DNA of 51,984 nucleotides from an uncultured Candidatus Saccharibacteria bacterium (GTDB taxonomy: Bacteria; Patescibacteriota; Minisyncoccia; 2-02-FULL-40-12; GWA2-44-9): the NCBI GenBank assembly GCA_964366725.1, contig CAYIUL010000001.1, positions 1 to 51,984 on the forward strand, in the 5' to 3' direction. The position numbers were made by a program, and so were the translations under genes. The stretch's first letter is position 1. The number at the start of each line of letters is the position of its first letter. This document shows, one piece after another, positions 2,442 to 47,145 of the stretch. The notes below the pieces were generated by a model. The model did no database searches. It was not told the DNA's origin and saw only the letters and a program-made list of their open reading frames with translations.

Positions 2442-2475
2442 AACATTCCAACATTCTTGAGAATGTTGGAATGTT
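2442..2475. repeat. 34-nt palindrome (16-nt arms, 2-nt centre), copy 1 of 3, intergenic rplM-rpsI
   Basis: AACATTCCAACATTCT-TG-AGAATGTTGGAATGTT; the arms are exact reverse complements. Related copies lie at 6150-6182 and 17093-17126. Confidence 0.9.
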
Positions 2476-2482
2476 GTAAATC

Positions 2483-3037
2483 ATGGTTACCAAGAAAACC
2501 ACAACCAAAAAACCTGCTAAGAAAAAAGAGGTTAAGAAAGCCGCCCCTGTTCAGGCCGCGATAGAACTTGAAGAAACCGAAACGCCGGTAGTCGTGGAAG
2601 AGACGACAAACGGAAACGGGAAAGAAAAGTATTTCTCGGCCGTAGGCAGGAGAAAAGAATCCGTCGCCCGCGTCCGGCTTTTCACCAAAAAGTCATCCGA
2701 CACCACCGACGGCGAGAAAGCTCTCGTTCAGGTCAACGGCAAGGACTATACCCAATATTTCTCGGATGTTAACCTCCAGAATGTCGTAGAATCGCCTTTA
2801 AAGAAGCTCAAATCAATGAACCGCTTCAAGGCCACCGTGCTGGTCAAAGGCGGCGGCTCCAGAGGCCAGGCCGACGCCGTAAAGCACGGCATCGCCCGCG
2901 CGCTTGTATTGTTTGACCTTAACTTCCGCAAGAAGCTCAAGAAATCCGGCCTGCTCACCCGCGACCCGCGTGTCAAAGAACGACGCAAATACGGCCACAA
3001 GAAAGCAAGAAAATCCGGACAGTTCAGTAAACGTTAA
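2483..3037 (+). CDS. rpsI: 30S ribosomal protein S9 with Lys/Glu-rich N-terminal extension
   Basis: 184 aa. S9 core runs from YFSAVGRRKESVARVRLF to the C-terminal KKARKSGQFSKR. About 50 extra N-terminal residues. Confidence 0.92.
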   Translation: MVTKKTTTKKPAKKKEVKKAAPVQAAIELEETETPVVVEETTNGNGKEKYFSAVGRRKESVARVRLFTKKSSDTTDGEKALVQVNGKDYTQYFSDVNLQNVVESPLKKLKSMNRFKATVLVKGGGSRGQADAVKHGIARALVLFDLNFRKKLKKSGLLTRDPRVKERRKYGHKKARKSGQFSKR

Positions 3038-3046
3038 GTAAGGCAT

Positions 3047-3580
3047 ATGAAAAAAATTGCTATTATAATCCGTGGATCTGTTGGGGTGGGTAAATCTACA
3101 GCCGCTGATGGGATCCAAAAAGCTTTGGGTTCACGAGTTTCTAAAGTAACACTTGATGATGGTTGGGCGGAAGGTGAATTTCGTTATGCCGGTGACTCAA
3201 CTCGATACAGTGACTTAGTATCCGAAAGCCCAATTCTTTTAGTTGAGCTTGCATATGGCGAGCCAGCTGGTGATGTTTTTCCCGGAGCCACAAAGAATCC
3301 CGCTGAATGGGCCGATATTCTCCGTAAAGACAGGCGCGAGATTTTTCTTTTTAAGCTTTCTGCCGACTGGGAAACAACTCGAAAACATCTGGCTAGGCGT
3401 AAACAGCCAGAGTCGGACCAAAAAGCTTGGCATGCTCGATACGAAGAAGCTGATTGGAAAAGTTTACCACAAAAACTCAACCTCCAGGAAATAGAAATTG
3501 ATACTGCCATAACTCCACCAAATATGGTGATCGATATAATCCTTGCCACCCTTAACAAGGCGTCAGAAAAGGGAGCATAG
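3047..3580 (+). CDS. P-loop NTPase / kinase-like protein
   Basis: 177 aa. Walker A GSVGVGKST at residues 10-18. No other recognisable domain. Sits 9 nt after rpsI. Confidence 0.6.
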   Translation: MKKIAIIIRGSVGVGKSTAADGIQKALGSRVSKVTLDDGWAEGEFRYAGDSTRYSDLVSESPILLVELAYGEPAGDVFPGATKNPAEWADILRKDRREIFLFKLSADWETTRKHLARRKQPESDQKAWHARYEEADWKSLPQKLNLQEIEIDTAITPPNMVIDIILATLNKASEKGA

Positions 3581-3633
3581 ATGTCGGCTAGAATTTATGG
3601 GACCACTTGAGATTAGTAACGCTAATTGAAGAG

Positions 3634-3660
3634 AGAAAACCGCTTAATAGCGGTTTTCTC
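3634..3660 (+). terminator. intrinsic terminator after the P-loop gene
   Basis: AGAAAACCGC-ttaata-GCGGTTTTCT: a 10-bp stem whose 3' arm runs into a U-rich tract. Confidence 0.7.
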
Positions 3661-3726
3661 GTAGGGCATAACATTCAGGGCTTTAAGGCCGTTGATTTTT
3701 AGAAACAAAAGTGAGAATATTTAAAA

Positions 3727-4236
3727 ATGGACTGGTTAAAACAAAATTGGTACCACATAACTCAACTACTACTTCTTCTTTGGCCTCCGAAAAAAGAAAA
3801 AGGGGTGACTATCGACAAGAATAGTGACGAAGTAGATTTGGACAAGATCAAGGGTACCACCAGAATACTCTTTATAGATGACGAGAAATTTAAAGTTTCT
3901 AACATACTTGCAGAACAGTATGGTTGGGTTAGAACCAAGTGGGTAAAGGACGTTATATCTCTAGACTCTCAGGATATACAAAATGCAGATATAATTTTTA
4001 TAGATATTAATCGTGTGGGTACAAAGCTCGGCTTTTTAAATGGTTTAGGGTTGGTTGAACCACTAAAAGGTAGGTACCCCAAAAAGAAGGTCGTCGTTTA
4101 CTCAGCAAATCCCTATAGAAACATGTCTAATCCAGCAATTCAACGAGCCGATGGGAGGTTAAAAAAATATTCAACCCCCTTTGAGTTTCAAGACTTAATA
4201 GAAACATTTGCTAAAGAAATATATGGGAACAAATAA
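3727..4236 (+). CDS. stand-alone receiver (CheY-like REC) domain protein
   Basis: 169 aa. REC landmarks: acidic pair ILFIDDE, phospho-acceptor-like IIFIDIN, VVVYSA (T/S position), LKKYSTPFEF (K-P position). Short hydrophobic N-terminus and no output domain. Very AT-rich. Confidence 0.65.
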   Translation: MDWLKQNWYHITQLLLLLWPPKKEKGVTIDKNSDEVDLDKIKGTTRILFIDDEKFKVSNILAEQYGWVRTKWVKDVISLDSQDIQNADIIFIDINRVGTKLGFLNGLGLVEPLKGRYPKKKVVVYSANPYRNMSNPAIQRADGRLKKYSTPFEFQDLIETFAKEIYGNK

Positions 4237-5270
4237 TGAAATTTCACCTCGTTAATAAGCAGGGGGAAATTCTCATATCTAATTTCTCTGATAATCACTT
4301 GGAATTTGTTGGTAAGTCGGAAGTGGGGATTATAATAAAAGATGGTCAGAAATTAAGGTTTGGAAAAGCTGAAAACGAATTTGGAACCACATTTTTACTC
4401 GCCGATGAACCCGAACTGTTAAAAAGTTCTCGTTTGTTTAAGGAGAAACTCGCCCTATATGGCGAGTTTCTTGGGGAAGTTGATAAAATCAGAGAGGATA
4501 TTTTAGAAGATACCCTACACGACTTGGTCACACTACAAACAAAACAAAATTATGAACTTTTTAGCTTAATTAATGAAGAGCATTTGTTTAAAATGCATAA
4601 CTATAAAACACAAATAAAATTAATCGAAGCATTGATTAAAAGCAACTCCGAAAAAACGGCAAAATCGCTATATGAACTAATAAGGCTAAATTCGCTTAGT
4701 ACTAACCATTTAAAACAACTGGAACTAAAGCGTTCTTTGAATAAAAATTTACAAAATCTACAATTTAAACCTTGCAATATAAAAAAGGCTGTATTTAAAA
4801 ATATTTATACTTTCTTCAGCGACTTTGATAAGAAAGGGGTGGAAATAGATATTAAAGAATCAAGTAAGTTTTTAAATCTTGACTATGATACCTTCTCTTC
4901 TGCAATATTTTTCTTTATGGATAACATATCTAAATACATCCTTCCTAAGTCCACGCTTACTGTAGAATTTGAGCAACAAAAAGACGGAAAGTTTTCGCTG
5001 AGATTTAGTATGTTTAGTCTACAAATTAAGGAGCATGAGAAGGAAAAAATTTTTGAACAGGGGTATTCTGGAGAAAACGCCATCGCACTAAATAAACACG
5101 GAAAGGGGCTAGGCATGACCAGAATGAAAACTCTTCTAGCTGTAAATAATGCTGATGTAACTTTGGAGATTATTAATAATTCCGAAACTTATCATGAGGG
5201 GTTTAGCTACGAAAACAATATCTTCACTATATTATTTTATGACTCTGACTTAAGAGAAAACTCCGCCTAG
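4236..5270 (+). CDS. cytoplasmic histidine-kinase-like protein (DHp + GHKL ATPase, G1 box degenerate)
   Basis: 344 aa. H-box-like TLHDLVTLQT, N-box FFFMDNISKY, G2-like HGKGLGM. No DxGxG G1 box at the expected position (SMFSLQI). The start ATG overlaps the REC gene's stop (TAATG at 4234-4238). Confidence 0.65.
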   Translation: MKFHLVNKQGEILISNFSDNHLEFVGKSEVGIIIKDGQKLRFGKAENEFGTTFLLADEPELLKSSRLFKEKLALYGEFLGEVDKIREDILEDTLHDLVTLQTKQNYELFSLINEEHLFKMHNYKTQIKLIEALIKSNSEKTAKSLYELIRLNSLSTNHLKQLELKRSLNKNLQNLQFKPCNIKKAVFKNIYTFFSDFDKKGVEIDIKESSKFLNLDYDTFSSAIFFFMDNISKYILPKSTLTVEFEQQKDGKFSLRFSMFSLQIKEHEKEKIFEQGYSGENAIALNKHGKGLGMTRMKTLLAVNNADVTLEIINNSETYHEGFSYENNIFTILFYDSDLRENSA

Positions 5271-5446
5271 CAAGATTCAGTAAATCTCCAACAACTGAAA
5301 AGAGCTATGGTTGTCGTTGATTTTTAGCCATAAAATGCGAGAATTTGGAGGAAACGCCGAAACCGCTGAAATTCAAACACGAATTCGTGAAGGAAATTCT
5401 TGAGGGGGGGCCTGCCTGCACAGGCAGGAAGACGACTACCTGGCCC

Positions 5447-5474
5447 TTGTAAATAACCCAAAACATGGTATAAT
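5447..5474 (+). promoter_or_regulatory. sigma70-like promoter with extended -10
   Basis: TTGTAA (5447-5452), 16-nt spacer, TGgTATAAT (-10 at 5469-5474), upstream of the 5530 ORF. Confidence 0.5.
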
Positions 5475-5529
5475 TTAGAAACAGTTCTTAAACAAGGTAG
5501 CTATGCCTGAAATAGCAAGGAGACATGTG

Positions 5530-6078
5530 ATGGACAAGAAGTTGCGTATTCTGCTCGTCGTCGGGGTCTTCGTGATGGGCTTCGTGTGGGGAACCGCGTT
5601 CGAGAGACGCTACACCGTTCGACCCCTCCAGGCGAAAGTCGAGGGATACAAGTCCGAGATGGAGATCGTCAAGGCGGTGGAGCTGGCTCGCACGAACCAG
5701 CCGGGCGCCACATTCGACTACGGCGAGTACCGCGGTCTTCCCGTCCAGCTCGTCGTCGATCCTGACGGTCGCATCATCCTCCAGATCATCTACAGCGGGG
5801 GAAATCCCGACGTGGATGCCGACATTCGTGGCGACTATCTCGACTTCCTCAAGAATCAAATCGAGATGGCCGTCGCTACAGAGAAAGGGATTCGGCTCCG
5901 CAACGGGATGTTGCTGCGTATTGAGGGCTACCCGATTTGGGGGCCTCACGGAAGCTTGGGGCCACAGGGTGGCGCCAAAAGGTTGTACTTCGGCGAGAAG
6001 GCAACTTTCGACGGCCATACCATCATCGTGCACGGAGAAGCCACAAAGCCCATCGGCTACTATCCCTACGCCCTTTAG
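5530..6078 (+). CDS. hypothetical membrane-anchored protein (GC-rich)
   Basis: ORF-track frame 5503-6078. The AAGGAGA Shine-Dalgarno at 5517-5523 favours GTG 5527 or ATG 5530 as the start. N-terminal hydrophobic helix LRILLVVGVFVMGFVWG. A terminator lies directly downstream. Confidence 0.6.
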   Translation: MDKKLRILLVVGVFVMGFVWGTAFERRYTVRPLQAKVEGYKSEMEIVKAVELARTNQPGATFDYGEYRGLPVQLVVDPDGRIILQIIYSGGNPDVDADIRGDYLDFLKNQIEMAVATEKGIRLRNGMLLRIEGYPIWGPHGSLGPQGGAKRLYFGEKATFDGHTIIVHGEATKPIGYYPYAL

Positions 6079-6085
6079 CCAGTCC

Positions 6086-6146
6086 GCCGTCACACCGAAG
6101 AAGCCGCCCACATCGGGCTCGCTCCTCGGTGTGACGGCTTTTTTAT
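6086..6146 (+). terminator. intrinsic terminator
   Basis: CCGTCACACCGA ... TCGGTGTGACGG: a 12-bp stem with a large loop, followed by CTTTTTTAT. Confidence 0.7.
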
Positions 6147-6149
6147 AAG

Positions 6150-6182
6150 AATATTCCAACATTCTTGAGAATGTGAGGATGT
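6150..6182. repeat. degenerate copy of the 34-nt palindrome
   Basis: ATATTCCAACATTCTTGAGAATGTGAGGATGT. The left arm and centre are conserved; the right arm has diverged (GTGAGGAT versus GTTGGAAT). Confidence 0.7.
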
Positions 6183-6248
6183 CGCGTCGTTTGATTTTCC
6201 GGTGGAAAATGATATTTTATACGCAAGTTCGTTAAAGAAGGAGACGCT

Positions 6249-6933: not shown

Positions 6934-6955
6934 GTGTCGGCGAACCTCCCGACCC

Positions 6956-12461: not shown

Positions 12462-13532
12462 ATGCGTATCGCACTCGTTCATGACTGGCTCAACAACCTC
12501 GGCGGGGCCGAGCGTGTGCTCATAGAACTCCATAAGACATTTCCCGACGCGCCAATATATGCCCTTTTTTACAACAAAAAATTCGTCCGCGAACATCTGC
12601 CTAACGCGAACATAATTCCCAGCGGGTTGCAAAAATTCCCGTTCATTACAAAAACATATCCCATTTTACTTCCTCTGATGCCGAGCGTCGTAGAATCATT
12701 CGACATGTCCGACTACGATGTCGTTATCTCCTCTTCGGTCATATTCTCAAAAGGACTGGTATTAAAGCCAAAAACAAAACACATCTGCTATTGCTATAGT
12801 CCGACCAGGTTCCTATGGGACAGGCACACCGAATACGAACACAGTTCATGGCCTGCAAAAATCGCCCAGCACCTCCTGCGCGTCTGGGACCGGCAGGCCT
12901 CCGACAGGGTGGACCAGTTTGTGGCCATATCGGAAAACGTGAAAGACAGGATACAAAAATACTACCGCAGGGATTCCAAAATAATCTACCCTCCGGTATC
13001 TCTAACGACACGGGGTGTCGTTAGCCCCAAAACTGTGGATAAGTCGGGATACTATTTGATAGTGAGCCGCTTATTTCCTTATAAAAATATAGACATCGCG
13101 ATAGAAGCATTCAATAAGCTTGGATACGAGCTGGTGATAGTGGGGGACGGGCCGGATATGGTTCGTTTGAAAAAGATGGCCGGAAAGAATATCAAACTTG
13201 TCGGATATAAGACCGACAAAGAGGTGGCCGAGTATTACAGGAATTGCAAAGCGTTCATAATGCCGCAGGAAGAGGACTTCGGATTGACGCCTTTGGAGGC
13301 GATGAGCTTTGGCAAGCCGGTGCTGGCCTTAAGAAAAGGCGGGGCGTTGGAAACAATAACCGAAGGCCTCCATGGGGAGTTCTTTGACGACCCGATACCG
13401 GAGGCCTTAGCCGACGGCGTCCGCCGATTGAATGAAAATTACCCCTCATACAAGCGAATGGAAATTCTCTATCAGGCCCAAAAATTCTCAAGGGACAGAT
13501 TCAAAAGAGAGATAATGGAGCTATTGGTGTAA
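12462..13532 (+). CDS. GT4-family glycosyltransferase
   Basis: 356 aa. Motifs: GGAERV, VSRLFPYKN, EEDFGLTPLEAMSFGKPV (EX7E region). Confidence 0.85.
   Translation: MRIALVHDWLNNLGGAERVLIELHKTFPDAPIYALFYNKKFVREHLPNANIIPSGLQKFPFITKTYPILLPLMPSVVESFDMSDYDVVISSSVIFSKGLVLKPKTKHICYCYSPTRFLWDRHTEYEHSSWPAKIAQHLLRVWDRQASDRVDQFVAISENVKDRIQKYYRRDSKIIYPPVSLTTRGVVSPKTVDKSGYYLIVSRLFPYKNIDIAIEAFNKLGYELVIVGDGPDMVRLKKMAGKNIKLVGYKTDKEVAEYYRNCKAFIMPQEEDFGLTPLEAMSFGKPVLALRKGGALETITEGLHGEFFDDPIPEALADGVRRLNENYPSYKRMEILYQAQKFSRDRFKREIMELLV
13002..13024. repeat. in-CDS palindrome, TAACGAC family, copy A
   Basis: CTAACGACAC-ggg-GTGTCGTTAG with 10-bp arms, translated LTTRGVVS inside the GT4 gene. Confidence 0.85.
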
Positions 13533-15575: not shown

Positions 15576-16442
15576 GTGAATATCAGTGTTGTTACCATCA
15601 ACTACAACAGTTCGGAGAACACGATAAAACTTTTGGAGTCCCTCAAAAACCAGACCGACAAAAATTTTAATGTTTTGGTCATTGATAATAACTCCGGTCC
15701 GGACCAGAAAGCAATATTAAAGAACTACCGGACAGAAGAAACTAATATCGTATTTATCGAAAACGAACATAACCTGGGTTTTTCCGGAGGCAACAATGTC
15801 GGGATCAAGAAAGCCCTTGCAGATGGCGCTGACTGGATTCTCCTGCTCAATAACGATACTTGGGTAGAAAGTGACTTTATCCATCGTCTAAAGACAAATT
15901 TAGAAGGCAAGGAGGGGATAATGGGGTTGGCCATAGACGAAGGGGGCAGAACCGTTTACGCCGGTAAAATTGAATGGCTAAAACCCACACTTATCCACAT
16001 AACGACACGGGGTGTCGTTAGTCCACAGGCATATGCTATCGGGGGGGCGATGGCGGTGCATAAGAACGTATTTGAAAAAATAGGGTTCTTGGACGAGAGA
16101 TATTTTCTTTATTTTGAGGATGCCGATTACAGCATAAGGGCCCAAAAGGCGAGCATTCCCGTGGAGTTTTTGCCTGAAGTTCAGGTCCGCCATTCTGTCT
16201 CGGCGTCAACCAAAAAACTCGGCTCGCCTCTCATTCTGCGCTACCACTACCGCAATGCTTTGTATTTCAATTTGAAACACGGGCCATGGTATATCAAACT
16301 GCTTGTCTTGCCCTGGAGCTGGTTTGTGGCTGTAAAACAGATACTTAAGCTGACAGCGGGAAGAAACGCCAAAGAGTCAGAAGCAATATTGGCCGGGGTC
16401 GTAGATTTTTATAAAAACAATTACGGAAAACTTCATGTATAA
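15576..16442 (+). CDS. GT2-family glycosyltransferase
   Basis: 288 aa, GTG start. Motifs: VVTINYNS, VIDNNS, LLNNDT, YFEDADYS. Confidence 0.85.
   Translation: MNISVVTINYNSSENTIKLLESLKNQTDKNFNVLVIDNNSGPDQKAILKNYRTEETNIVFIENEHNLGFSGGNNVGIKKALADGADWILLLNNDTWVESDFIHRLKTNLEGKEGIMGLAIDEGGRTVYAGKIEWLKPTLIHITTRGVVSPQAYAIGGAMAVHKNVFEKIGFLDERYFLYFEDADYSIRAQKASIPVEFLPEVQVRHSVSASTKKLGSPLILRYHYRNALYFNLKHGPWYIKLLVLPWSWFVAVKQILKLTAGRNAKESEAILAGVVDFYKNNYGKLHV
16000..16020. repeat. in-CDS palindrome, TAACGAC family, copy B
   Basis: TAACGACAC-ggg-GTGTCGTTA, translated ITTRGVVS inside the GT2 gene. Confidence 0.85.
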
Positions 16443-17574
16443 GATAGGCATAGAATGCGAGGAGCTGGAAAAAGGCGGTGGATGGGGAATTGGCCGCATT
16501 GTTTCAAAACTTCTTGAGGAAATTTCCCACCATCCAGAATTAGGAAAAGAGTTCCGGTTTATTTTATTTTTCAAAAACCGCATTCCTGCTCTGTCATACC
16601 TAAACGCGCCGATATTTAAAAAAAGAGTTGTGGCCCCGTTTTTCAAAGGCCGTTTATTTCCGGTTTATTATCTTTTTCTCTTGCCTCTACGTCTCTGGTT
16701 CGAACAGCCGGATCTCATGTTTTGGCCGGCCTATATGCTGCCGTTTTTTACCTTTACACGATCGCTTTCTCTTATGACCGAGGATGTTTATCATGAAGCA
16801 TTTAACGGCAAGCTCCCATTCAAATACAGATTTTTTTATATGATTTTCGGAACATACTCGGCAAAACATGCAACCAAGCTTATGGCAATATCAGAGACAT
16901 CGAAGAAAAATATGGCAAAACTTTATAAAATCGACCCGGATCGAATATTTGTAAACCATTTGGGAGTGGATTTAAAATACGATCGTATTGTAAATCAAAC
17001 CGGAAATTTACCGTATATTTTGTACATAGGTCAGGCATTCCCAAGGAGACATTTGAAAGAAACGATTTTAGCGTTTGAAAAACTCGTCACAGAACATTCC
17101 AACATTCTTGAGAATGTTGGAATGTCAGAATTAAAGTTGATTGCTATAGGGCCGGACAAGTATCCCGAGCTAATTATTGATTCGCTGGCATCAAAAGTAA
17201 ACGGGCGGCTAGGTCGAGAAGCAGTGATTCATAAAAATTACGTTGAAGATAGCGAGCTTGCCAAACTATACGCCGGAGCAAAAGCTTTGGTATATGTATC
17301 CGACAGAGAAGCATTTGGTCTGCCTCCAATGGAAGCACTCTCGTTTGGAGTTCCGCCTGTTATCGCCGATAATGAATTAGGCCGCGAACTTTTCGGGGAA
17401 TACGCATTTTACGTTAAAAATCCTGACCCGGACGGAATTGCCAACGGTATCAGCCAGGCATTAACCGATTCCAATAAAATTCAGAAAATAAAGAATTCCG
17501 GACCGGAATTCGTGAAGAAATATAATTGGAAAAATTTCACCGATAAATTCTTAGAAAATGTTAAAGACATCTAA
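16435..17574 (+). CDS. GT4-family glycosyltransferase
   Basis: 379 aa. Motifs: YILYIGQAFPRRH, SDREAFGLPPMEALSFGVP. Confidence 0.85.
   Translation: MYKIGIECEELEKGGGWGIGRIVSKLLEEISHHPELGKEFRFILFFKNRIPALSYLNAPIFKKRVVAPFFKGRLFPVYYLFLLPLRLWFEQPDLMFWPAYMLPFFTFTRSLSLMTEDVYHEAFNGKLPFKYRFFYMIFGTYSAKHATKLMAISETSKKNMAKLYKIDPDRIFVNHLGVDLKYDRIVNQTGNLPYILYIGQAFPRRHLKETILAFEKLVTEHSNILENVGMSELKLIAIGPDKYPELIIDSLASKVNGRLGREAVIHKNYVEDSELAKLYAGAKALVYVSDREAFGLPPMEALSFGVPPVIADNELGRELFGEYAFYVKNPDPDGIANGISQALTDSNKIQKIKNSGPEFVKKYNWKNFTDKFLENVKDI
17093..17126. repeat. 34-nt palindrome, copy 3, in frame inside the GT4 gene
   Basis: AACATTCCAACATTCT-TG-AGAATGTTGGAATGTc matches copy 1 at 33 of 34 positions. It encodes EHSNILENVGMS in the interdomain loop. 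Confidence 0.9.
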
Positions 17575-19078: not shown

Positions 19079-20105
19079 GAAAGTTTCAATAAACATAGTC
19101 GTCCGCAACGGGGAAAAATATATCCGCCATTGTCTTGACGCGATATTGGCGCAGACATATCCGCACAATTTAATTGAGTTAAATATTTTAGATAACGGTT
19201 CGACGGACACAACAAAAGAAACTATTCGGGATTTCGGATTTCGGATTTCGGATTTCGGATTTGCCAAATTTAATTTGGTTGAGTCCAAATTAAATTTGGG
19301 GATGTGGCCCGGCCAGGAAGAGCTGCTGAAACACTCAAGCGGAAAATACATCCTCGCTATGGCCGTTGACGTGTTTTTGGATAAAGATTTTCTCATCAAG
19401 GCCGTTGAGAGAATGGAGAACGACGGCAATATCGGCGCTCTTGAAGCCAAGATATACAGATACGAACTCTCTAACGGTAATATCGTGCCGTCGAATATCA
19501 TCGATACCTGCGGTTTTAAAATATTCAAATCCAGACGGATAATAAATATAGGCCACGGCGAAACGGACGGCGGACAGTTCGGCAAATTTATGGAGATATT
19601 CGGAGTGGAAGGCGCGGCGCCATTTTTCAGGCGGGAAGCGCTCGAAGATATTCGTATCAAAGGAGGGTTGGTGGACAAAGATTATTTCTGGTACGGGGAT
19701 GACCTCGATCTTGCCTGGCGGATGCGGCTTTTCGGCTGGAAAGAGGTTTTTGACCCCGAGGTGGTGGCTTGGCATGACCGCCAGACGACCAAAACTCTCA
19801 AAAAGAGCCCCGCCGACTTTATAAGAATAAGGAGAGCAATACCGATTAAAAAACGCGGCCTGGATTGGAGAAATACTCGCTGGACAATCGTCAAAAATGA
19901 TTATATAATCAATATTCTGAAAGATCTCCCGGCCATACTCAAGAGGGAAGTCCAAATGGCGGGATATATATTACTTTTCGAACCGGCAGTGCTTCTGGAA
20001 ATACCCAAATTTCTTTTGTTCCTTCCTCGTATGTTGGCGAGGAGAAAAGAGATAATGAAACGGGCAACGGCAAAACCGGCTGAGATGCGAAAATGGTTCA
20101 ATTAA
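19071..20105 (+). CDS. GT2-family glycosyltransferase
   Basis: 344 aa. Motifs: INIVVRNG, LDNGSTD, AMAVDVF, WYGDDLDLAWR. Confidence 0.85.
   Translation: MSEKVSINIVVRNGEKYIRHCLDAILAQTYPHNLIELNILDNGSTDTTKETIRDFGFRISDFGFAKFNLVESKLNLGMWPGQEELLKHSSGKYILAMAVDVFLDKDFLIKAVERMENDGNIGALEAKIYRYELSNGNIVPSNIIDTCGFKIFKSRRIINIGHGETDGGQFGKFMEIFGVEGAAPFFRREALEDIRIKGGLVDKDYFWYGDDLDLAWRMRLFGWKEVFDPEVVAWHDRQTTKTLKKSPADFIRIRRAIPIKKRGLDWRNTRWTIVKNDYIINILKDLPAILKREVQMAGYILLFEPAVLLEIPKFLLFLPRMLARRKEIMKRATAKPAEMRKWFN
19229..19263 (+). repeat. heptanucleotide tandem repeat (GGATTTC)x4 plus one 6/7 copy, inside a CDS
   Basis: GGATTTC GGATTTC GGATTTC GGATTTC GGATTTg, read directly. It encodes DFGFRISDFGF. Confidence 0.9.
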
Positions 20106-26979: not shown

Positions 26980-27728
26980 TATTTTATATTAATGTACTTG
27001 GCCCAATAATCGTAGAGGGTTTTTGTGGCTTTGAGATCTCCAAAACAATATTTTGCTATGTCAAACGCTTTTTGGTCCCTGAAAAGTTGAGCAACATCAT
27101 CACCGGTAACTCCTTTTGACTTGGGACTTTCGATCCCGAATGCCTGGCACCACATATGAAGATTGCCCTTCCTCCGAACAGCGCCAAAGAAGGTTAGCCG
27201 ATCCAGCAAATCAATGTGTTCATCGTAGTAACGGTTAGGCATCAGATTTTTGGTGGGCTTAATTTTGTGTATCGCCGAACGGACAAGAATGTAAGGGCAG
27301 TCAAAAGTCCTCCCGTTAAAAGTAACAAATTGGTCGTAGTGCGAAACAACATCCCAAAAATTTTTGAGAATTTCTTTCTCATCGGCGCAAGGAATGTATT
27401 GGGCGTCTTTCCCGATTTCTCCCAAATGACTCTGATTTGGTTGAGAAATCGAGGATCCTCGATTTTGTTTCTCCGAAGGAGACAAAATCGGGACTTCGTT
27501 CTCATGTTCCCCCTGCGAATTAAAATAAACCGCGCCTTTATCGGTATCGGGGTTCAATATGCCGATGGCCACCACCTCGCCCGTCAGGGGAGAGAAGCCC
27601 AGGCCTTCTTTGACGGCCTCGACCTCTTCGGGGGTCTCGGCAAAGCGCAAAAGAGTTTCTTGGGATTTTTCATCCAGCGAATCAAATTCAACGCCTACGG
27701 TTTCAATATCAAATATAAGTCGCGGCAT
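26979..27728 (-). CDS. DEDD-type 3'-5' exonuclease (RNase H-like fold, PolB-exonuclease-like)
   Basis: 249 aa. Motifs: LIFDIETVG (Exo I), FNGRTFDCPYI (Exo II), YCFGDLKAT (Exo III-like). Confidence 0.7.
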   Translation of the reverse strand: MPRLIFDIETVGVEFDSLDEKSQETLLRFAETPEEVEAVKEGLGFSPLTGEVVAIGILNPDTDKGAVYFNSQGEHENEVPILSPSEKQNRGSSISQPNQSHLGEIGKDAQYIPCADEKEILKNFWDVVSHYDQFVTFNGRTFDCPYILVRSAIHKIKPTKNLMPNRYYDEHIDLLDRLTFFGAVRRKGNLHMWCQAFGIESPKSKGVTGDDVAQLFRDQKAFDIAKYCFGDLKATKTLYDYWAKYINIK

Positions 27729-32613: not shown

Positions 32614-34593
32614 ATGTTTGTCATTGAAGTCATTCCCTTAACCATTCTGCCCCCGAACGTTCCTCAAATCTTGAGCTACTTTTTTGATAAAAAACTCGAG
32701 CGTGGAGCGGTAGTCGTGGTAATTATCGGGAGCCGGAGCGTCAAGGCGATAGTGATCGATTCAATTCCCCTGACGGAACATAAGCTCGGTTTAAAAAAAG
32801 CGGAGTTCCAACTCAAGAAGCTTTCCGAAGTCCTGATGGAGACGCCGCAGATATCCGATCGGCAGCTCCGCATCGCTCTCTGGCTTTCCAAGACCTACTA
32901 TTCGCCTTTGGGCATATGTCTTAAAACCGTCCTGCCTCCGTTCTTTTTGAAGAAAAAATTCCCAATATTGCCGGAGGTGAGTATAAAAACAGAGGAAGAA
33001 GTGAAAAGAAAACCGGATCTCATTTTGACCGACGCCAAAAATGCGTTGAAGAATGTCCTGCCCCTGGTCAAGAGCGCGGTAAGCAAGAACGGACAGGCGG
33101 TTTTGATCGTTCCCGATAACCAAACTCTCGATTATTTTTGCGACAATTTAAAAGAGTTTGATACAACAAAGATATCTTCGGAAATGGGAAATAAGAAGTT
33201 TTTTGAGGCCTGGCAGAATATCCAGAGCGGGAAGACCAAAATATTGGTAGGCACAAGACAGGCGCTTCTTTTTCCCTTCAAGAAACTGACGCTGGTAATT
33301 GTCGACGACCCTCTGCACGAGTTCTATAAATCCGACATGTCTCCAAAATACAATACGGCCGATCTCGCCGGTTATGTAGCCAAAATAAACAACTGCCGCC
33401 TTTTATACCTGTCCCCCATCACAGGGGTCGAAAATTATTTCCTCTTGAAAAACAAAACATACGAATTGATAGACAAGACCTCGGCCTCGCCGCCCATTAA
33501 GATCGTCAACATGGTCAATGAGATAAAATCGGGAAATTTCTCTCTGTTAAGCAGGGAGTTAAAAAGTCAGATACTTTCCTTGGTTAATCCAACGAGTCAA
33601 AATAAAAAAATCCTCATTTTCTCACCGCGCCGGGGACATTCGGGCGTTCTTGTCTGCCAGAATTGCGGCTGGACAGCGAAGTGCCCGAATTGCGAAACGG
33701 CATACAGAATACATCGGGCCGAAGATCTGGTCCTAATGTGCCATCACTGCGGAAACACGCAGCGGCTCCCGGATCACTGCCCTAACTGCAACAGCTCCAA
33801 ACTAAAGCCGACGGGCCCGGCCGGAAGCCAGAAAATATATGAGGAGGTCAGAAGGGTTCTATCCCAGAATGAAATAAGCGGTCGCGGAGTGGGATTCCCT
33901 GTCGCCCGGCCGGAGGCCGTCGGCGACAAAGGGAACTCTGTCGTGCCTGTGCTGGTCCTGGATACGGACGTAACGACAAACCAAACCGAGGAAGAAGAAG
34001 TAATGTCCGAGATAGCCCTGCCAAAAACGTCCGTTCTCATTGCCACCCAGATGATATTTAGCTACCGCTACGACCACATCTTCGATTTCGTAGCCATTAT
34101 GAATACAGATTCCCTTATTCAATCTCCCGATTTCCGCACGGAGGAACGGCTGTTCTATCAGCTGGAAAAACTACTCGATTTCAAGCCGCAACAACTGCTT
34201 ATCCAGACCTTCAACCCCGAGAACCAAGCTATCTTGATGGCCTCACAAAGAAATTACAAGGACTTTTACGAAAAAGAACTGGCTGTACGGCAGGCCCTCT
34301 CGTATCCCCCATTCTCCAGATTGATAAAATTAACCTTCCGGCATCCCGACCGCGAAGTGGCTTCGCGCGAAGCAAGAATACTGGCCGGCAAACTAAAAAT
34401 GGCTGTAGTTCAATTAAAGTTATCGGATAAAATAAAAATAACCGACTCCTCTCCCGGATACACCGAAAAAGAACGCGGACTTTATACATACAACATAGTA
34501 ATCAAATCCCTCAACGGCCAAACCCCGAGAGAAATATTGAAATTCGTCCCCTCAAGGTGGCTGATAGATGTCGACCCTCGTTCCCTTCTATAG
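32614..34593 (+). CDS. priA: primosomal protein N' (PriA)-like, ATPase motifs degenerate
   Basis: 659 aa from ATG 32614. Cys-rich Zn region CQNCGWTAKCPNCETAY ... CHHCGN ... CPNC, plus VLIATQM. No GxGKT Walker A. DEEH is replaced by DDPLHE. No GRAGR. Confidence 0.8.
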   Translation: MFVIEVIPLTILPPNVPQILSYFFDKKLERGAVVVVIIGSRSVKAIVIDSIPLTEHKLGLKKAEFQLKKLSEVLMETPQISDRQLRIALWLSKTYYSPLGICLKTVLPPFFLKKKFPILPEVSIKTEEEVKRKPDLILTDAKNALKNVLPLVKSAVSKNGQAVLIVPDNQTLDYFCDNLKEFDTTKISSEMGNKKFFEAWQNIQSGKTKILVGTRQALLFPFKKLTLVIVDDPLHEFYKSDMSPKYNTADLAGYVAKINNCRLLYLSPITGVENYFLLKNKTYELIDKTSASPPIKIVNMVNEIKSGNFSLLSRELKSQILSLVNPTSQNKKILIFSPRRGHSGVLVCQNCGWTAKCPNCETAYRIHRAEDLVLMCHHCGNTQRLPDHCPNCNSSKLKPTGPAGSQKIYEEVRRVLSQNEISGRGVGFPVARPEAVGDKGNSVVPVLVLDTDVTTNQTEEEEVMSEIALPKTSVLIATQMIFSYRYDHIFDFVAIMNTDSLIQSPDFRTEERLFYQLEKLLDFKPQQLLIQTFNPENQAILMASQRNYKDFYEKELAVRQALSYPPFSRLIKLTFRHPDREVASREARILAGKLKMAVVQLKLSDKIKITDSSPGYTEKERGLYTYNIVIKSLNGQTPREILKFVPSRWLIDVDPRSLL

Positions 34594-34630
34594 AGTGTAC
34601 AAATGTACAAAGGGCGCCTTTGTACACTCT
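34592..34630. repeat. REP-like hairpin, left flank of the Y1 transposase
   Basis: AGAGTGTACAAATGTACAAAGG-gcg-CCTTTGTACACTCT. Core is GTACAAAGG-gcg-CCTTTGTAC at 34605-34625. Confidence 0.8.
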
Positions 34631-34641: not shown

Positions 34642-35280
34642 TCAAAAGTCACCCTTATCTAGTAATAAATCCTCCATATCTTTTTTTGATTTTATAATTT
34701 CGTAAGACGATTCGGTGAATTCTTTAAAATCTTGAATATTCTTAAATTGATTGCCAATCAAAGCTGTGTCGCAAAGATCACTTTGACTGTTTAGGTAGGC
34801 AGGATAGCTGCTCCAGATATATTCGGCCGAATTTTTTATAAGACCTGCTACTTTAGGGTTTAAATGTATATAAGCTGCAAGCCAAGTTAGATAATCATTA
34901 TCATCCACTATTATTTGCCTGAACCGATCTTGAAAAACATGGCCCACATGCTTATATTTTTTATTGGAATATTTAGAGTAGCTTGTGCAGAGTTTTAGAA
35001 TTAATTTGCTCGGCGGTATTTCATTGTTTTGTTTTATAAGCAAATGAAAATGATTCGGCATCAAACAATATGCCAAAAGAGTAAATGAGCCCGACGGAAG
35101 AGGTTGGATTCTATAATATCTGTTTTTCTCATATGTTTCGGGAAATAAATTTTGCCTTAATCGCAATAGGAAAAATTGATAGTCCTCTCTATTGATAAAG
35201 ATGTTGTTTTTGAAATTGCCCCTATTATAAATATGGTAAATCTCGCCAACTCCTGTTTGTTTATAATCTCGCGTATTCAT
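34642..35280 (-). CDS. IS200-like / REP-associated tyrosine (Y1, HUH) transposase
   Basis: 212 aa. YHIYNRGN, LAYCLMPNHFHLLIKQ (HUH), GHVFQDRF, YIHLNPKVAGL (catalytic Tyr region). Confidence 0.8.
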   Translation of the reverse strand: MNTRDYKQTGVGEIYHIYNRGNFKNNIFINREDYQFFLLRLRQNLFPETYEKNRYYRIQPLPSGSFTLLAYCLMPNHFHLLIKQNNEIPPSKLILKLCTSYSKYSNKKYKHVGHVFQDRFRQIIVDDNDYLTWLAAYIHLNPKVAGLIKNSAEYIWSSYPAYLNSQSDLCDTALIGNQFKNIQDFKEFTESSYEIIKSKKDMEDLLLDKGDF

Positions 35281-35303: not shown

Positions 35304-35336
35304 CCAACTGTGCAAAGGCGCCCTTTGTACGGTTGG
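35304..35336. repeat. REP-like hairpin, right flank of the Y1 transposase
   Basis: CCAACTGTGCAAAGG-cgc-CCTTTGTACGGTTGG. The core at 35310-35330 is the reverse complement of the left core apart from 1 mismatch. Confidence 0.8.
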
Positions 35337-36337: not shown

Positions 36338-37211
36338 AATAAACATTGTATTTTTTGGAACCCCTGAATTTGCCGTGGCGCCAGTTTTAGGGGCTCTCAT
36401 CAAAAATGGCTACAACGTTTCCCGATTTCAGCCGCATTCTCTAAAGGACGAGCGGGTTTTCGAAGAATTTAAAGAATCAAACCCGGATCTTTGTATTGTG
36501 GCCGCTTACGGAAAAATACTTCCGGCACGGTATCTCGATATACCAAAATATGGATTCATAAATGTCCATCCGTCTCTGCTCCCCAAATACCGGGGCCCGT
36601 CCCCTATTCAAACCGTGATCTTGAACGGCGACCAAGAAACCGGGGTTACCCTCTTGATGGTGGATGCGAAAGTTGACCATGGCGCTATTCTGGCAAGTTC
36701 CAAATACCAAATTCCTGAAGATAAATATTTTACCGAGACGGCAAAAGAACTTTTCGAATTAGGAGCAAAGTTATTGATAGAAATTCTTCCGAAATATATT
36801 AACGGTGAGATCGAGCCGAAAGAGCAAGACCACAGCCAAGCCACATTCACAAAAATGTTCAAAAGAGAAGACGGAAAAATAAACTGGCATGACCCGGCAC
36901 AAGAAATTTATAACCGTATCCGCGCCTTGAACCCGGAACCGGGCACATGGACGACATGGCACCCTTCAACAAGCTCAGGGCAAGCAGACAAAGTTATCAA
37001 CATTTCCGATGTAACGACCTTCAAGGTCGTTAGTCCACAGGGTGGAGATTTAGTGCCGGGAACAGTTAAAAAAGTTGACAATAAGGTTGTCGTGGCCACC
37101 TCTTCGGGTTATCTTGAACTCATATCCATCCAGCTTGAGGGCGGGAAAAAAATGGATGCCAAAAGTTTTATCAATGGCCATCCTAACTTCCTGAACTCGC
37201 AGCTGGAATAG
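36327..37211 (+). CDS. fmt: methionyl-tRNA formyltransferase (N-terminal loop deleted)
   Basis: 294 aa. Motifs: IVFFGTPEFA, INVHPSLLPKYRGPSPIQ, DAKVDHG. About 30 aa are missing where the [10 protein letters not shown] loop is expected. Confidence 0.88.
   Translation: MGNKINIVFFGTPEFAVAPVLGALIKNGYNVSRFQPHSLKDERVFEEFKESNPDLCIVAAYGKILPARYLDIPKYGFINVHPSLLPKYRGPSPIQTVILNGDQETGVTLLMVDAKVDHGAILASSKYQIPEDKYFTETAKELFELGAKLLIEILPKYINGEIEPKEQDHSQATFTKMFKREDGKINWHDPAQEIYNRIRALNPEPGTWTTWHPSTSSGQADKVINISDVTTFKVVSPQGGDLVPGTVKKVDNKVVVATSSGYLELISIQLEGGKKMDAKSFINGHPNFLNSQLE
37012..37032. repeat. in-CDS palindrome, TAACGAC family, copy C (variant)
   Basis: TAACGACC-ttcaa-GGTCGTTA, translated VTTFKVVS in fmt. 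The 3' flank GTCGTTAGTCCACAGG is identical to copy B. Confidence 0.7.
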
Positions 37212-44303: not shown

Positions 44304-44333
44304 TTGACATTTCATATCAAGGTATGCTATAAT
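44304..44333 (+). promoter_or_regulatory. near-consensus sigma70 promoter (antisense to the dnaK-dnaJ operon)
   Basis: TTGACA (44304-44309), 18-nt spacer, TATAAT (44328-44333). Confidence 0.7.
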
Positions 44334-44339
44334 GGTTAT

Positions 44340-44655
44340 ATCAGAGCTTGGGAAGGGAAACTTGTTGGGGAGCCGGTTGCTGTCCCTCAACCCAGCTGTT
44401 CTGGCCGACATCGTGTCGGCTAAAATTAATAAGAATCGGCTCCACGCGTTCTTTTCAAGATTCGGGACAGATAAGCGGGCGCCGCCAGAAGGCTGCGTAT
44501 CACGTAAGCTGTCCTCCCGAAACCTGGCCAGGAAGAACATAGCGGCGACGCCTACACAGGTTCGCGGCATTTATTCCTGCAATTTAAAAAAACTGCCGGA
44601 TAGCATACCAGGGTGTGACTCCGGCACGCGTCTTCCTTCGAGAAGGCGTTTTCTT
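44340..44655 (+). ncRNA. candidate structured ncRNA of unknown class (~315 nt)
   Basis: Bounded by the promoter above and the terminator at 44627-44660. No credible ORF. Several helices seen: 44369-75/44447-53, 44404-10/44414-20, 44464-70/44509-16, 44594-600/44620-26. GC is higher than the flanks. Confidence 0.5.
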
Positions 44656-44660
44656 TTTCT
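44627..44660 (+). terminator. intrinsic terminator
   Basis: CGTCTTC-cttcga-GAAGGCG (7 bp including one G.U) followed by TTTTCTTTTTCTT. Confidence 0.7.
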
Positions 44661-44786
44661 TAAATTCAAAGGTCAGAATTCATATAATACTTTCTATATT
44701 TTCCGCTTACTTATGATATTTCATAGTATCATAAGTTAAACAACTAAAACCTCTGCTTTTACATCGCGCTCTTCCACTTCAAGCAG

Positions 44787-46634
44787 TTAGTCCTTGGGTT
44801 CTTCTTTGGGTTCTTCCTGCGGAGGCGGTGTCTGTTGTTTGTATAATTCTCCGCCGACTCTTTGCGCAACTTTGGACAGTTCTTCGGTAGCTTTTTTTAT
44901 TTCCTCAACACTCTCCGATTTCAAGTTTGTTTTAACCGCTTCGGCTTTCTCGTTTAATTCTTTTTGGTCCTCTTCTTTTATTTTAGCATCGTTTTCCTTA
45001 ACCATCTTCTCCGAAGTGTAGACGAGTGTTTCGCCAAGATTCCTGGTTTCGGCCAGTTCCTTTCTTTTTGCGTCCTCGGCGGCGTGTTTTTCCGCATCAG
45101 CGGTCATCCTCTTTTTTTCGTCCTCCGAAAGGCCGGATGAACCCTCTATTTTTATGGACTGCTCTTTTCCGGTGGCCTTGTCTTTGGCTTTTACGTGTAA
45201 GATGCCGTTGGCGTCTATGTCAAAGCTCACTTCAACTTGAGGAACGCCTCGCGGAGCCGGAGGAATGCCATCAAGAATGAATCTCCCCAGTGTTTTATTG
45301 TCATGAGCCATCGCCCTCTCTCCCTGAAGAACGTGTATCTCAACCGAGGGCTGATTGTCTGCCGCCGTTGAGAATATCTGCGTTTTAGAAACCGGCACGG
45401 TGGTGTTCTTCTCTATCATCTTTGTGGATACCTGGCCAAGCGTCTCGATACCGAGAGACAAGGGCGTGACATCCAAAAGCAGAACATCTCTTATCTCGCC
45501 CTGCATAATTCCCCCCTGGACAGCCGCTCCCAAAGCAACGACTTCGTCGGGGTTGATATCCTTGTGCGGGTCTTTGCCGAAAAGTTTCTTAACTTCTTCT
45601 ACGATAAGCGGCATTCTGGTCTGTCCGCCAACCAGTATCACCTCGTTAATATCGCCGGTTTTGAATCCGGATTCGTTCAAGGTCTTTTTGGTAAGTTCTA
45701 TGGAGTGCGTGACGAGGTCTCCTACCAATTCTTCGAGTTTTGCCCGAGTAAAGGCCATGCTGAAATGCTTCGGCCCGGAAGCGTCCGCGGTCAGGAATGG
45801 GATGTTTACTTCGGTCTGAAGAGTACTTGAAAGCTCATGCTTGGCTTTTTCCGCGGCGTCTTTAAGCCGCTGGACGGCCAGCTGGTCTTTGGACACGTCA
45901 ACCCCCTGGTCTTTTTTAAACTCGCCTATCAAATAATTGATTACCCTTTGATCCAGATCGTCTCCCCCGAGATGCGTGTCGCCGCCGGTTGATTTGACCT
46001 CGATTGTGTCGTCGCCTATCTCGAGCACAGAAATGTCGAATGTGCCTCCGCCAAAGTCATAGACCACTACTTTTTCATCTTTTTTCTTATTTAATCCGTA
46101 AGCCAAAGCCGCGGCAGTCGGCTCGTTTATAACGCGCTTAACGGTCAGTCCCGCTATCTCTCCGGCGTCTTTGGTCGCTTTTCTTTGAGAGTCGTCAAAA
46201 TACGCCGGAACAGTGATAATGGCTTCGGTAATTTTTTCGCCCAAGCGGTCTTCGGCATCAGCCTTAAGCTTCTGCAGTATCATTGCCGATACTTCTTCGG
46301 GCTTATGCCATTTGTCGCCTATCTTTACTTCCACTCCGCCGTTGGAGGCCTCTCTTATCTCATAAGGAAGAAGCTTCTTGTCCCTTTGGACCTCTTCGTC
46401 CTTAAAACGGCGCCCGATGAGACGCTTAACGGAAAAGATGGTATTGGCCGGGTTGGTAACCGCCTGGCGCTTGGCAGTCACGCCCACATACCTTTCCCCG
46501 CTCTTGCCCATAGCGACTACCGAGGGGGTAGTCCTCATCCCCTCTTTGTTCTCTATTATCCTCGGCTGGCCAACCTCAACCACCGCCATTGCGCTGTTAG
46601 TTGTCCCTAAATCGATTCCTAATATTTTTGCCAT
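44787..46634 (-). CDS. dnaK: molecular chaperone DnaK (Hsp70)
   Basis: 615 aa. Motifs: [28 protein letters not shown]. Confidence 0.98.
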
Positions 46635-46653
46635 ATTATTTTTATTTAATTAG

Positions 46654-47145
46654 TTATTTTATTATTTTTACTCTTGCCGGACGGATAACCTTGCCGTGCA
46701 TCGTGTATCCCGCCCGTACTTCTTCTGTTTTATCACCGCTTTCTCCTTCCACCGCTTCCCCCGACGCTTCGGTCGGGGCCCCGACTTCTGACGTCGGGGA
46801 TGACTCTATTGCTTCATGAAGATTTGGGTCGAATGCGCCTTCTGTGCTTATCCTTTCGATGTTGTGTTTTTTCAAGAACTCTTCGAATTTCTTAACCACC
46901 TGGTCCAGCCCCGGATTTCCTATTTCTTTTGACGCTTTTTCCAAATCGTCCACTAATTCGATTACCTCCAGCACGACCCTCTCATTGGCGAACTTGGCGA
47001 ATTCCGACAACCTCTTCACTTCATCTTTCTTATAATTTATGAAATCAGCCCTCTCCCTCTTCCAGTTATCCAGGTATTCCTGGGCCTGGACTTTCGCTTT
47101 TTCCAATTCGGTTTCGATGTTCTTGTCTTCTTTTTGTTCGTCCAT
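46654..47145 (-). CDS. grpE: nucleotide exchange factor GrpE (with C-terminal insertion)
   Basis: 163 aa. Motifs: RERADFINYKKD, FDPNLHEAIE, GYTMHGKVIRPARVKI. Confidence 0.92.
   Translation of the reverse strand: MDEQKEDKNIETELEKAKVQAQEYLDNWKRERADFINYKKDEVKRLSEFAKFANERVVLEVIELVDDLEKASKEIGNPGLDQVVKKFEEFLKKHNIERISTEGAFDPNLHEAIESSPTSEVGAPTEASGEAVEGESGDKTEEVRAGYTMHGKVIRPARVKIIK

Follow-up and report, generated by a model that had tools for sequence, protein, structure and literature searches.

Rickettsia palindromic elements (RPEs) measure about 100-150 bp, are restricted to Rickettsia and lie in frame in unrelated genes, where they add a peptide at tolerated positions. Repetitive extragenic palindromic (REP) sequences are short hairpin repeats that accompany a REP-associated tyrosine transposase (RAYT), and a single-stranded hairpin intermediate has been proposed for REP/RAYT and shown for IS200/IS605. 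MITEs (miniature transposable elements with inverted repeats) and Correia-type elements sometimes lie in frame in open reading frames (ORFs), and ArsR/SmtB autorepressors such as SmtB, CzrA, CadC, HlyU and NolR have 12-2-12 operators. Here we describe a 51,984-nt stretch of DNA from an uncultured Candidatus Saccharibacteria bacterium (contig CAYIUL010000001.1; called the window below, meaning the whole stretch) in which short hairpins lie inside genes. These hairpins are probably copies of several dispersed repeat families, among them three that we call A, B and C, which spread by copy-and-paste in the genomes of Patescibacteria (the candidate phyla radiation, CPR) and survive in tolerant loops. 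CPR genomes are small and about 90% coding. The window has a GC content of 45%, and its best GrpE and GT4 homologues carry the name Yanofskybacteria, which places the contig close to Yanofskybacteria (Patescibacteria); the same grpE is present on a groundwater contig from Hainich well H43.

A sequence-only reading of the window had listed hairpin-forming segments inside seven genes. All seven are present where it placed them, within uninterrupted ORFs, and Pfam confirms the gene identities: two GT4 glycosyltransferases (GT4a, 12462-13532, hosting family B; GT4b, 16435-17574, hosting family A), a GT2 glycosyltransferase (15576-16442, family B), a PolB-type 3′-5′ exonuclease (26979-27728, minus strand, family C), priA (32521-34593, a GC-rich hairpin), fmt (36327-37211, family B) and grpE (46654-47145, minus strand, a tandem double hairpin). 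Each of the seven segments folds more stably than its own shuffles (z -2.6 to -7.6). Across the whole window, perfect hairpins number 27 at stem lengths of 8 bp or more, compared with 9.5 ± 3.5 in first-order Markov simulations, and 13 at 10 bp or more, compared with 0.5 ± 0.8. Part of this excess is ordinary and consists of terminator-like intergenic hairpins and a CIRCE operator (47939-47982). Rfam at the gathering score and ARAGORN found no RNA family and no tRNA-like element in the window. As had been proposed, families recur in unrelated genes and one also occurs between genes, with family A at 2442 and 17093 and family B at 13003, 16000 and 37012. The extents that had been given for the elements needed revision: the hairpins are real, but family B is longer (13003-13042, 15991-16029 and 36993-37041) and the exonuclease element runs from 27411 to 27492.

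Family A is a perfect 16-2-16 palindrome, the 34-mer AACATTCCAACATTCT-TG-AGAATGTTGGAATGTT, which is exact at two places in the window. One copy lies between rplM and rpsI (2442..2475), 11 nt after the rplM stop codon and 8 nt before the start of the rpsI ORF; the other lies in frame in GT4b (17093..17126, plus strand) and reads EHSNILENVGMS. A degenerate copy (6147..6182), which the sequence-only list did not include, has 4 mismatches at 30 specified positions and sits in GC-rich DNA with no recognised gene. We scanned one genome per GTDB species for the exact 32-mer ACATTCCAACATTCT-NN-AGAATGTTGGAATGT and found it in at least 118 contigs. Among the matches listed, the CPR hosts are Yanofsky-, Kaiser-, Lipton-, Sungii-, Nomura-, Giovannoni-, Brenner-, Moran-, Doudna- and Wolfebacteria and others, and the palindrome is also found in GC-rich contigs (up to 176 kb) from metagenome-assembled genomes (MAGs) of Kiritimatiellia, Verrucomicrobiota and Lentisphaerae. 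With 2-3 copies per 52 kb it is sparse. By a longest-ORF gene call, about three-quarters of the copies are intergenic, mostly a few to about 25 nt past a stop codon, and the gene pairs around them are convergent in 17 cases versus divergent in 8.

The flanks of family A copies are unrelated to each other, and no direct repeat of 3-9 nt borders any of the 126 copies checked for a target duplication. The palindrome extends by at least 3 bp into the flanks in 53 of these 126. Its central dinucleotide is GC in 59 copies, CA or TG in 50 and TA in 11. Across 32 variant forms, 70 of 128 changed positions are matched by a complementary change on the other arm; such mirrored changes are expected of a hairpin and equally of a site for a symmetric dimer, and do not distinguish the two. 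In one contig labelled as a Gammaproteobacteria MAG (L096), the flanks of family A closely resemble those of a Giovannonibacteria contig (L048). This is probably, to judge from the flanking DNA, a CPR contig binned into the wrong MAG, and the palindrome could serve to flag mis-binned contigs.

About 25 family A copies, or roughly a fifth, lie in frame within long conserved genes. TsaD and MnmA each host the palindrome at two different positions, and the other hosts are Pgk, PurL, PyrC, class II fructose-bisphosphate aldolase (FBA), GltX, Gnd, UvrC, MurC, Dus and glycosyltransferases, together with PrmC in two Kiritimatiellia MAGs. The reading frame is strongly biased: 19 of the 25 copies read xHSNIL[EQK]NVGM[SL], four TFQHSxECWNV and two NIPTFxRMLEC, a ratio of about 15:3:2 when orthologous copies are counted once. 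The preferred frame is the one free of Cys and Trp. Comparison of the aldolase with solved structures (PDB) places KKHSNILQNVGMS where these have HARGVS, a net gain of 7 residues.

The fullest record of an in-gene copy comes from GT4b. Among 120 orthologues, 62 have an insert-free loop (..EFPELKLIAIGPD), 6 keep the intact peptide, about 50 have an altered or decayed form (such as EHPYKLENVGMS or YSQILENLGIS) and a few carry other or nested insertions; the loop DNA is 36 nt long with family A versus 9 nt in insert-free orthologues. On this record the insertion is old, and many lineages have let it decay. The window's copy is letter-perfect, and so is that of L085, a syntenic Yanofskybacteria contig with only about 70% identity in the flanking DNA; this comparison is biased by the retrieval of L085 through an exact match. 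The same loop holds more insertions in orthologues P0324, P0287, P0299, P0269 and P0354 and in L085 (4640-4720). One of the GT4b insertions splits the family A peptide at its centre (HSNIL-PPSHEATDGQGK-NIGML), and a recurrent LRQSSGQV or LRQNSGRAGQ segment stands just 5′ of it. The loop is a hot spot for multiple elements.

Family A has a partner gene. In five loci, exact copies 312-379 bp apart enclose a gene for a protein of about 90 residues; a tblastn search (E < 1e-30) finds this gene in 22 of the 118 listed loci, with the palindrome adjacent every time. When copies with up to nine mismatches are counted, 21 of the 22 genes are flanked by palindromes on both sides, about 320 bp apart. Clustering of the 908 ORFs of the 118 listed loci yields this winged-helix protein as the sole family enriched near family A, with no enrichment of a transposase or nuclease among them. 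The upstream copy stops 24-33 nt 5′ of the ATG and adjoins TGTATAAT- or TAGAAT-like hexamers resembling a -10 element. The downstream copy overlaps the last codons of the gene, and many members end in KTFQHS-stop, which is the palindrome read in frame.

The partner protein matches Pfam HTH_5 (ArsR-type, E = 8.8e-9). Its AlphaFold2 model (pLDDT 90.5) has the topology H-H-H-H-E-E-H, and the top structures in Foldseek are CadC, HlyU, SmtB and CzrA with TM scores of 0.8-0.87. Among 40 aligned members there is no invariant Cys and no His/Asp/Glu cluster in α5 that would mark a metal or redox site. In a large protein collection its members fall into at least 1298 clusters (90% identity), all of 88-100 residues; its best matches are 67-93% identical, and database names for it are generic only (“winged helix-turn-helix”, “ArsR family”). 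From the adjacency of gene and repeat, we infer that family A is the candidate cognate binding site of this ArsR/SmtB-fold protein. The window does not encode the protein by tblastn. A 100-residue ORF beside the degenerate family A copy (6143-6445, minus strand) was considered as a winged-helix gene and rejected, as its translation is of low complexity and the tblastn search of the window returned no homologue.

Family B has a unit of about 40-50 nt, comprising, in order, (G)TTATC[CA]ACA, 0 or 9 nt of spacer, the hairpin TAACGAC-N7-GTCGTTA and GTCCACAG(G); the hairpin loop is variable yet self-complementary. All three window copies fit the full unit. In GT4a the element is reversed (13003..13042, minus strand), with the hairpin at 13003-13023, a spacer of 9-10 nt and TGTGGATAA at 13034-13042, and it reads LTTRGVVSPKTVDK. 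In GT2 (15991..16029, plus strand) TTATCCACA at 15991-15999 is followed by the hairpin at 16000-16020 and GTCCACAGG at 16021-16029, reading LIHITTRGVVSPQ. In fmt (36993..37041, plus strand) GTTATCAACA at 36993-37002 precedes a 9-nt spacer, the hairpin at 37012-37032 and GTCCACAGG at 37033-37041, reading KVINISDVTTFKVVSPQG. All three hairpins read xTT..VVSP. The flank is also a perfect or one-off DnaA box (TTATCCACA or TTATCAACA) at 13034-13042, 15991-15999 and 36994-37002, and a fourth TTATCCACA occurs at 48043-48051, within a 570-bp intergenic region 5′ of hrcA; the 9-mer may be a site for DnaA or may serve the RAYT as guide or target.

A metagenome scan for TAACGAC-N7-GTCGTTAGYCC returned 61 contigs with family B. 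Its 80 non-redundant copies divide into 38 within ORFs and 42 between genes. The in-ORF peptides read [LIV]TTxxVVSPQ, often after KVIN, or [TH]NDxxxRY in the opposite orientation, and stop codons occupy all other frames. As for copy number, the window has 3 in its 52 kb and single metagenome contigs have as many as 5, which are counts per contig and not per genome. Family B lies at the identical site in GT2 orthologues from seven contigs (L121, L125, L137, L140, L144, L147 and L173) and in Fmt orthologues from four (L129, L142, L159 and L170). In L085, the nearest syntenic relative, GT2 and GT4a have no family B and show a different loop sequence of similar or greater length. The fmt copy falls in a variable loop of the C-terminal domain, which has 2-7 extra residues relative to solved structures.

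In 11 of the 61 loci, two family B hairpins about 720 bp apart surround a Y1_Tnp gene. The encoded RAYT has 225-238 residues, YHVLNRG and HYH motifs and a Y1_Tnp score of 36.3 bits. The 5′ flanking copy reads TGTGGATAAC-CTGTTGAC-hairpin and the 3′ copy GTTATCCACA-N9-hairpin-GTCCACA[GA]G. On this arrangement, family B appears to be the REP-type partner of a Y1/HUH RAYT. Beside this RAYT in L123, L124, L134, L136, L179 and L180 lies a gene for a PIF1-like helicase of about 520 residues, also between two family B hairpins. The helicase-bracketing spacing is constant (1647-1673 bp) and the RAYT-helicase gene pair recurs in several contigs; the two genes may form a larger conserved module.

The window has a RAYT of its own (34642..35280, minus strand), a Y1 (HUH) transposase of REP-associated type. 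It matches Pfam Y1_Tnp with 41.3 bits (cut-off 23) and NCBIfam REP_Tyr_transpos with 50.5 bits, below the cut-off of 80, and is 28-36% identical to the family B RAYTs (E about 1e-21 to 1e-23). It lies between its own REP-like hairpins, as the sequence-only reading described. On the 3′ side (34592..34630, core 34600-34626) TGTACAAAGG-GCG-CCTTTGTACA is nested in AGAGTGTACAAA/TTTGTACACTCT, and a related hairpin on the 5′ side (35305..35335) reads TGTGCAAAGG-CGC-CCTTTGTAC. Neither the window nor 1.25 Mb of fetched loci yielded a dispersed copy of this hairpin, and it differs from the families inside genes, as that reading had suspected. This enzyme is a paralogue with its own hairpin pair and not the cognate enzyme of family B. 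The suggested link to a REP/RAYT system is of the right kind for family B, which brackets a Y1 gene in 11 loci; the RAYT of the window is only a paralogue and family A has no linked transposase.

Family C is represented in the window by the exonuclease element (27411..27492, minus strand), which is 82 nt long, has three hairpins between its terminal inverted repeats CCCGATTT/AAATCGGG and reads in frame PILSPSEKQNRGSSISQPNQSHLGEIG. A second copy comes from another metagenome, where the GT4b orthologue P0310 (contig L186) carries ELQNRGSSISQPNQRDLGEIG in the loop that hosts family A, matching SEKQNRGSSISQPNQSHLGEIG of the exonuclease. The two copies are about 90% identical in DNA over 82 nt, share the edges CCCGATTT and AAATCGGG and have unrelated flanks. 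The terminal repeats are 8 nt long, neither copy shows an evident target duplication, and we identified no parent insertion sequence. Family C is a third dispersed element, MITE- or RPE-like, of which the segment first noted in the exonuclease is the core. The tandem neighbour of the exonuclease (26242-26979) was tried as an insert-free reference; it is 25% identical and of PD-(D/E)XK type, and so uninformative.

Two further hairpins are single loop insertions of the same general kind. The GC-rich hairpin in priA (33900..33928, plus strand) coincides with an insertion of 13 residues that E. coli PriA lacks, in helicase lobe 2 between the motifs FP and VP. The tandem double hairpin in grpE (46759..46799, minus strand; CCCCGAC..GTCGGGG twice) reads SPTSEVGAPTEASG. 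Some close GrpE relatives have no insert (HEAVST-EEGGDKIEEVRAGY), and the others have inserts of at least six different kinds at this one point, a hot spot for insertion; the DNA of three of these other inserts likewise forms hairpins. The AlphaFold model of GrpE shows residues 115-140 as a coil of low confidence that joins two strands, and the insert is a disordered loop in it.

Together, these comparisons bear out the proposal that several palindromic families are tolerated in frame in the manner of RPEs, as A, B and C each have highly identical copies in genes and genomes that are unrelated. Alignment with orthologues separates forms with and without the insert: about half of the GT4b proteins have none, GrpE relatives vary, and PriA and Fmt have extra residues relative to structures. 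The expectation that the segments occupy loops or insertions was borne out for GT4b, GrpE and PriA, which show insertions; in Fmt, GT2 and GT4a the element lies in a loop of variable length with no clean insertion. None of the outcomes named in advance as telling against the proposal (the same peptides on non-palindromic DNA in distant orthologues, no further copies, or inserts in conserved structural cores) was observed for families A-C.

How might such copies arise and persist? In-gene copies would be kept only if they keep the frame, contain no stop codon and lie in tolerant surface loops, and would be translated as 7-27 extra residues; this selective survival is supported in that stop codons fill the other family B frames and family A is biased in frame. 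By analogy with REP/RAYT and IS200/IS605 systems, the family B RAYT would recognise a folded single-stranded hairpin together with a flanking guide sequence, and would cut and rejoin it in trans. The upstream family A copy, placed next to a -10-like element, would act as an autorepressor operator of the ArsR-fold protein. The spread of family A itself can only be guessed at: host-mediated copying of a hairpin or cruciform, by gene conversion or template switching, may be limited by the specificity of the protein. We favour such copying over cut-and-paste because no transposase and no target duplication was found, resident codons are partly replaced and the palindrome extends into its flanks. 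More tentatively, and as a possibility only, family A and the ArsR-fold gene may be a self-maintaining module of palindrome and binding protein that has crossed between Patescibacteria and the Planctomycetes-Verrucomicrobia-Chlamydiae (PVC) group and seeds identical 34-bp palindromes with no transposase, some of them in frame in essential enzymes. The protein would then be needed for spread or retention, and the arms would be kept identical by hairpin-templated correction.

Several points weigh against reading the in-ORF hairpins as mobile repeat copies. The winged-helix protein is tied to family A, and the RAYT to family B, by adjacency of gene and repeat. Family A comes with no identified mobilising enzyme, and a 90-residue winged-helix protein cannot serve as one. 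The element has unclean boundaries in FBA, MnmA, Fmt, GT2 and GT4a, where it takes the place of some resident codons or lies in a loop of similar length. Translation of the inserts is deduced from open frames and frame bias. The gene calls in the fetched loci follow a crude longest-ORF rule, and searching by exact match favours intact copies in the sample. For the hairpins of GrpE and PriA, 817 kb of fetched loci gave no second copy, which leaves their mobility unproven. Nor is every hairpin here an element. A palindrome in a GT2-like gene (19264..19299, plus strand), which the sequence-only reading missed, consists of two copies of CCAAATTWAATTTGG with a 21-nt period. It was rejected as an insertion, since the orthologous peptide FNLxESxxNLG has the same length and is encoded by non-palindromic DNA, and by this comparison it clearly arose in place. 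Directly 5′ of it in the same ORF (19071-20105), the heptamer GATTTCG is repeated in tandem about 4.5 times (19230-19262; translated DFGFRISDFGF); the L085 orthologue of this stretch is diverged and non-repetitive, which indicates local sequence homogenisation in the GT2-like gene. A further in-ORF palindrome that had been missed (4444-4471) has an 11-bp perfect stem and a 6-nt loop (AGAAACTCGCC-CTATAT-GGCGAGTTTCT) and lies in an ORF with a weak HATPase_c match (4236-5270). The PriA, 4444 and 19264 palindromes have no dispersed copies in the 817 kb, later 1.25 Mb, of fetched loci.

The behaviour of the 19264 palindrome is what would be expected if hairpins arise in place, through template-switch mutation of quasi-palindromes or through selection for mRNA structure in low-constraint loops. 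The unique sequences of the PriA, GrpE and 4444 hairpins are compatible with this origin, and so are the family A flanks, which often lengthen the palindrome by 3-9 bp in a way that fits hairpin-templated copying. As a general account it is nevertheless unlikely: for families A-C it is refuted by the presence of the same 32-, 40- and 82-nt sequences in unrelated genes and genomes, and in GrpE and PriA the segment truly lengthens the protein. A different reading of family A, which we regard as rather doubtful, takes its copies as selected sites of a genome-wide DNA-binding system (regulon operators, roadblocks or terminators, or a parS/ParB-like organisation of the chromosome) and not as selfish DNA. 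The identity of 30 specified bases across phyla, the strong conservation of the winged-helix protein (at least 1298 clusters), the mirrored changes that keep the palindrome perfect and the operator-like site 24-33 nt 5′ of the protein's ATG all agree with it. So do the GT4b copy, intact in the window and in a relative with flanks only about 70% identical, and the intergenic copies just past stop codons, often flanked by A-runs and T-runs. The identity of 30 bases everywhere, however, far exceeds what a binding site needs and points to copying; the hosts are an arbitrary set of housekeeping enzymes with differing sites within one enzyme family, the GT4b copy has decayed in most lineages, and 2-3 copies per 52 kb is a low density. 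The selected-site reading is partly compatible with dispersed repeats, as sites could be both copied and bound.

With neither a target duplication nor a transposase found, family A might also be a DNA-uptake signal, like the Neisseria DNA uptake sequence (DUS) or the Pasteurellaceae uptake signal sequence (USS), that accumulates by biased uptake and recombination in competent CPR, with inverted pairs doubling as terminators and in-gene copies settling in tolerant frames. CPR genomes commonly encode competence-type uptake genes, copies lie past stop codons as inverted pairs, and both the frame bias and the replacement of resident segments of similar length could be read in this way. We consider it very unlikely, given a density at least ten times below that of known uptake sequences, a motif that is far longer and always a complete palindrome, a motif common to unrelated phyla, and the tight bracketing of a cytoplasmic winged-helix gene, for which uptake systems offer no parallel. 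Artefacts of assembly, amplification or adapters deserve practically no credence. Chimeric reads can yield short palindromes and some matches lie near contig ends, but the same sequences come from assemblies made over many years in many laboratories with many assemblers, occur only in particular lineages, are kept at orthologous sites, leave ORFs open with a frame bias and have decayed derivatives; family A is moreover absent from viral contigs. The latter collection (2.9 million contigs) was searched for a phage origin and gave no match to family A and one to family B. Copies of dispersed repeat families tolerated in loops thus remain the probable account of families A-C.

Other features of the window stand apart from these repeats. 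The CIRCE operator (47939-47982) is a perfect 19-bp inverted repeat containing TTAGCACTC-N9-GAGTGCTAA and lies upstream of the hrcA-grpE-dnaK operon on the minus strand, in which hrcA occupies 47147-47896; its palindrome is ordinary and has no relation to the repeat families. An intergenic element of about 64 nt is present in two copies that are 77% identical, one just 5′ of the gene at 11131 (11054-11117) and the other just 3′ of fmt (37217-37280). Each forms a long two-tier hairpin (-25 to -27 kcal/mol), and both tiers show compensatory differences between the copies; no Rfam family exceeds the threshold, and the top match, to lactis-plasmid RNA, is weak (29.5 bits). The stretch at about 5400-7000 has 55-59% GC, compared with 30-36% in its neighbours, and long ORFs on both strands, which have no Pfam match; Rfam gives no match there even at E = 0.1. 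It holds a GC-rich hairpin (6086-6138) and the degenerate family A copy (6147-6182).

Translated repeats could account for some of the unexplained peptide insertions in CPR proteins, and the repeats provide a sequence marker for spotting such insertions in annotation and structure prediction. They would extend the reach of REP/RAYT-type elements into genes where intergenic DNA is scarce. Family A offers a 34-bp site and a 90-residue protein as a pair that can be tested in vitro, from organisms that are hard to study. Its exact identity across phyla could be used to trace how genes pass between the CPR and PVC bacteria of groundwater, and is also a possible cause of mis-binning. The full-text literature, in a search with most subscription journals outside its coverage, gave no description of the motif, of the peptides HSNILxNVGM or TFQHSAECWNV, or of coding-tolerant palindromic or RAYT repeats in CPR.

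Compared with REP/RAYT and IS200/IS605 TnpA systems, family B is likewise a short hairpin repeat with two copies around one Y1_Tnp gene (YHV..RG, HxH) and, probably, scattered solo copies, and the RAYT of the window has the same layout of a gene between two hairpins. Classical REPs are extragenic, whereas nearly half of the family B copies (38 of 80) lie in ORFs and all three window copies are intragenic. In place of the GTAG head of REPs, the family B flanks are TTATC[CA]ACA, which is DnaA-box-like, and GTCCACAG; its hosts are Patescibacteria and its RAYT is a predicted enzyme. With RPEs the repeats share their in-frame position in unrelated genes, housekeeping genes included, the peptide added at tolerated positions and the solo copies that have no adjacent transposase. 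This likeness is one of working and implies no membership: the three families have units of 34, about 45 and 82 nt, the hosts are CPR and PVC bacteria, and a partner gene is identified for two of the three families, with unit length and host phyla setting them apart. Family C resembles MITEs and Correia-type elements in its terminal inverted repeats, its length below 100 nt, its lack of coding content of its own and its presence in unrelated genes, and differs in having no target duplication and no parent insertion sequence; family A is merely one palindrome. The family A partner has the fold of ArsR/SmtB autorepressors, and its gene similarly lies 24-33 nt 3′ of a site that has two-fold symmetry about a 2-bp centre. 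It differs from them in having no conserved metal-binding Cys or His, in a site of 16-2-16 instead of 12-2-12, in a second copy over the 3′ end of the gene and in the dispersal of identical sites genome-wide, across phyla and within genes. The phenomenon is thus a coding-tolerant, REP/RPE-like one in CPR, with intragenic translated copies, CPR and PVC hosts and very short units as its new aspects, and family A, with its cross-phylum identity, non-enzymatic partner gene and absence of a transposase, may be more than a variant of known systems.

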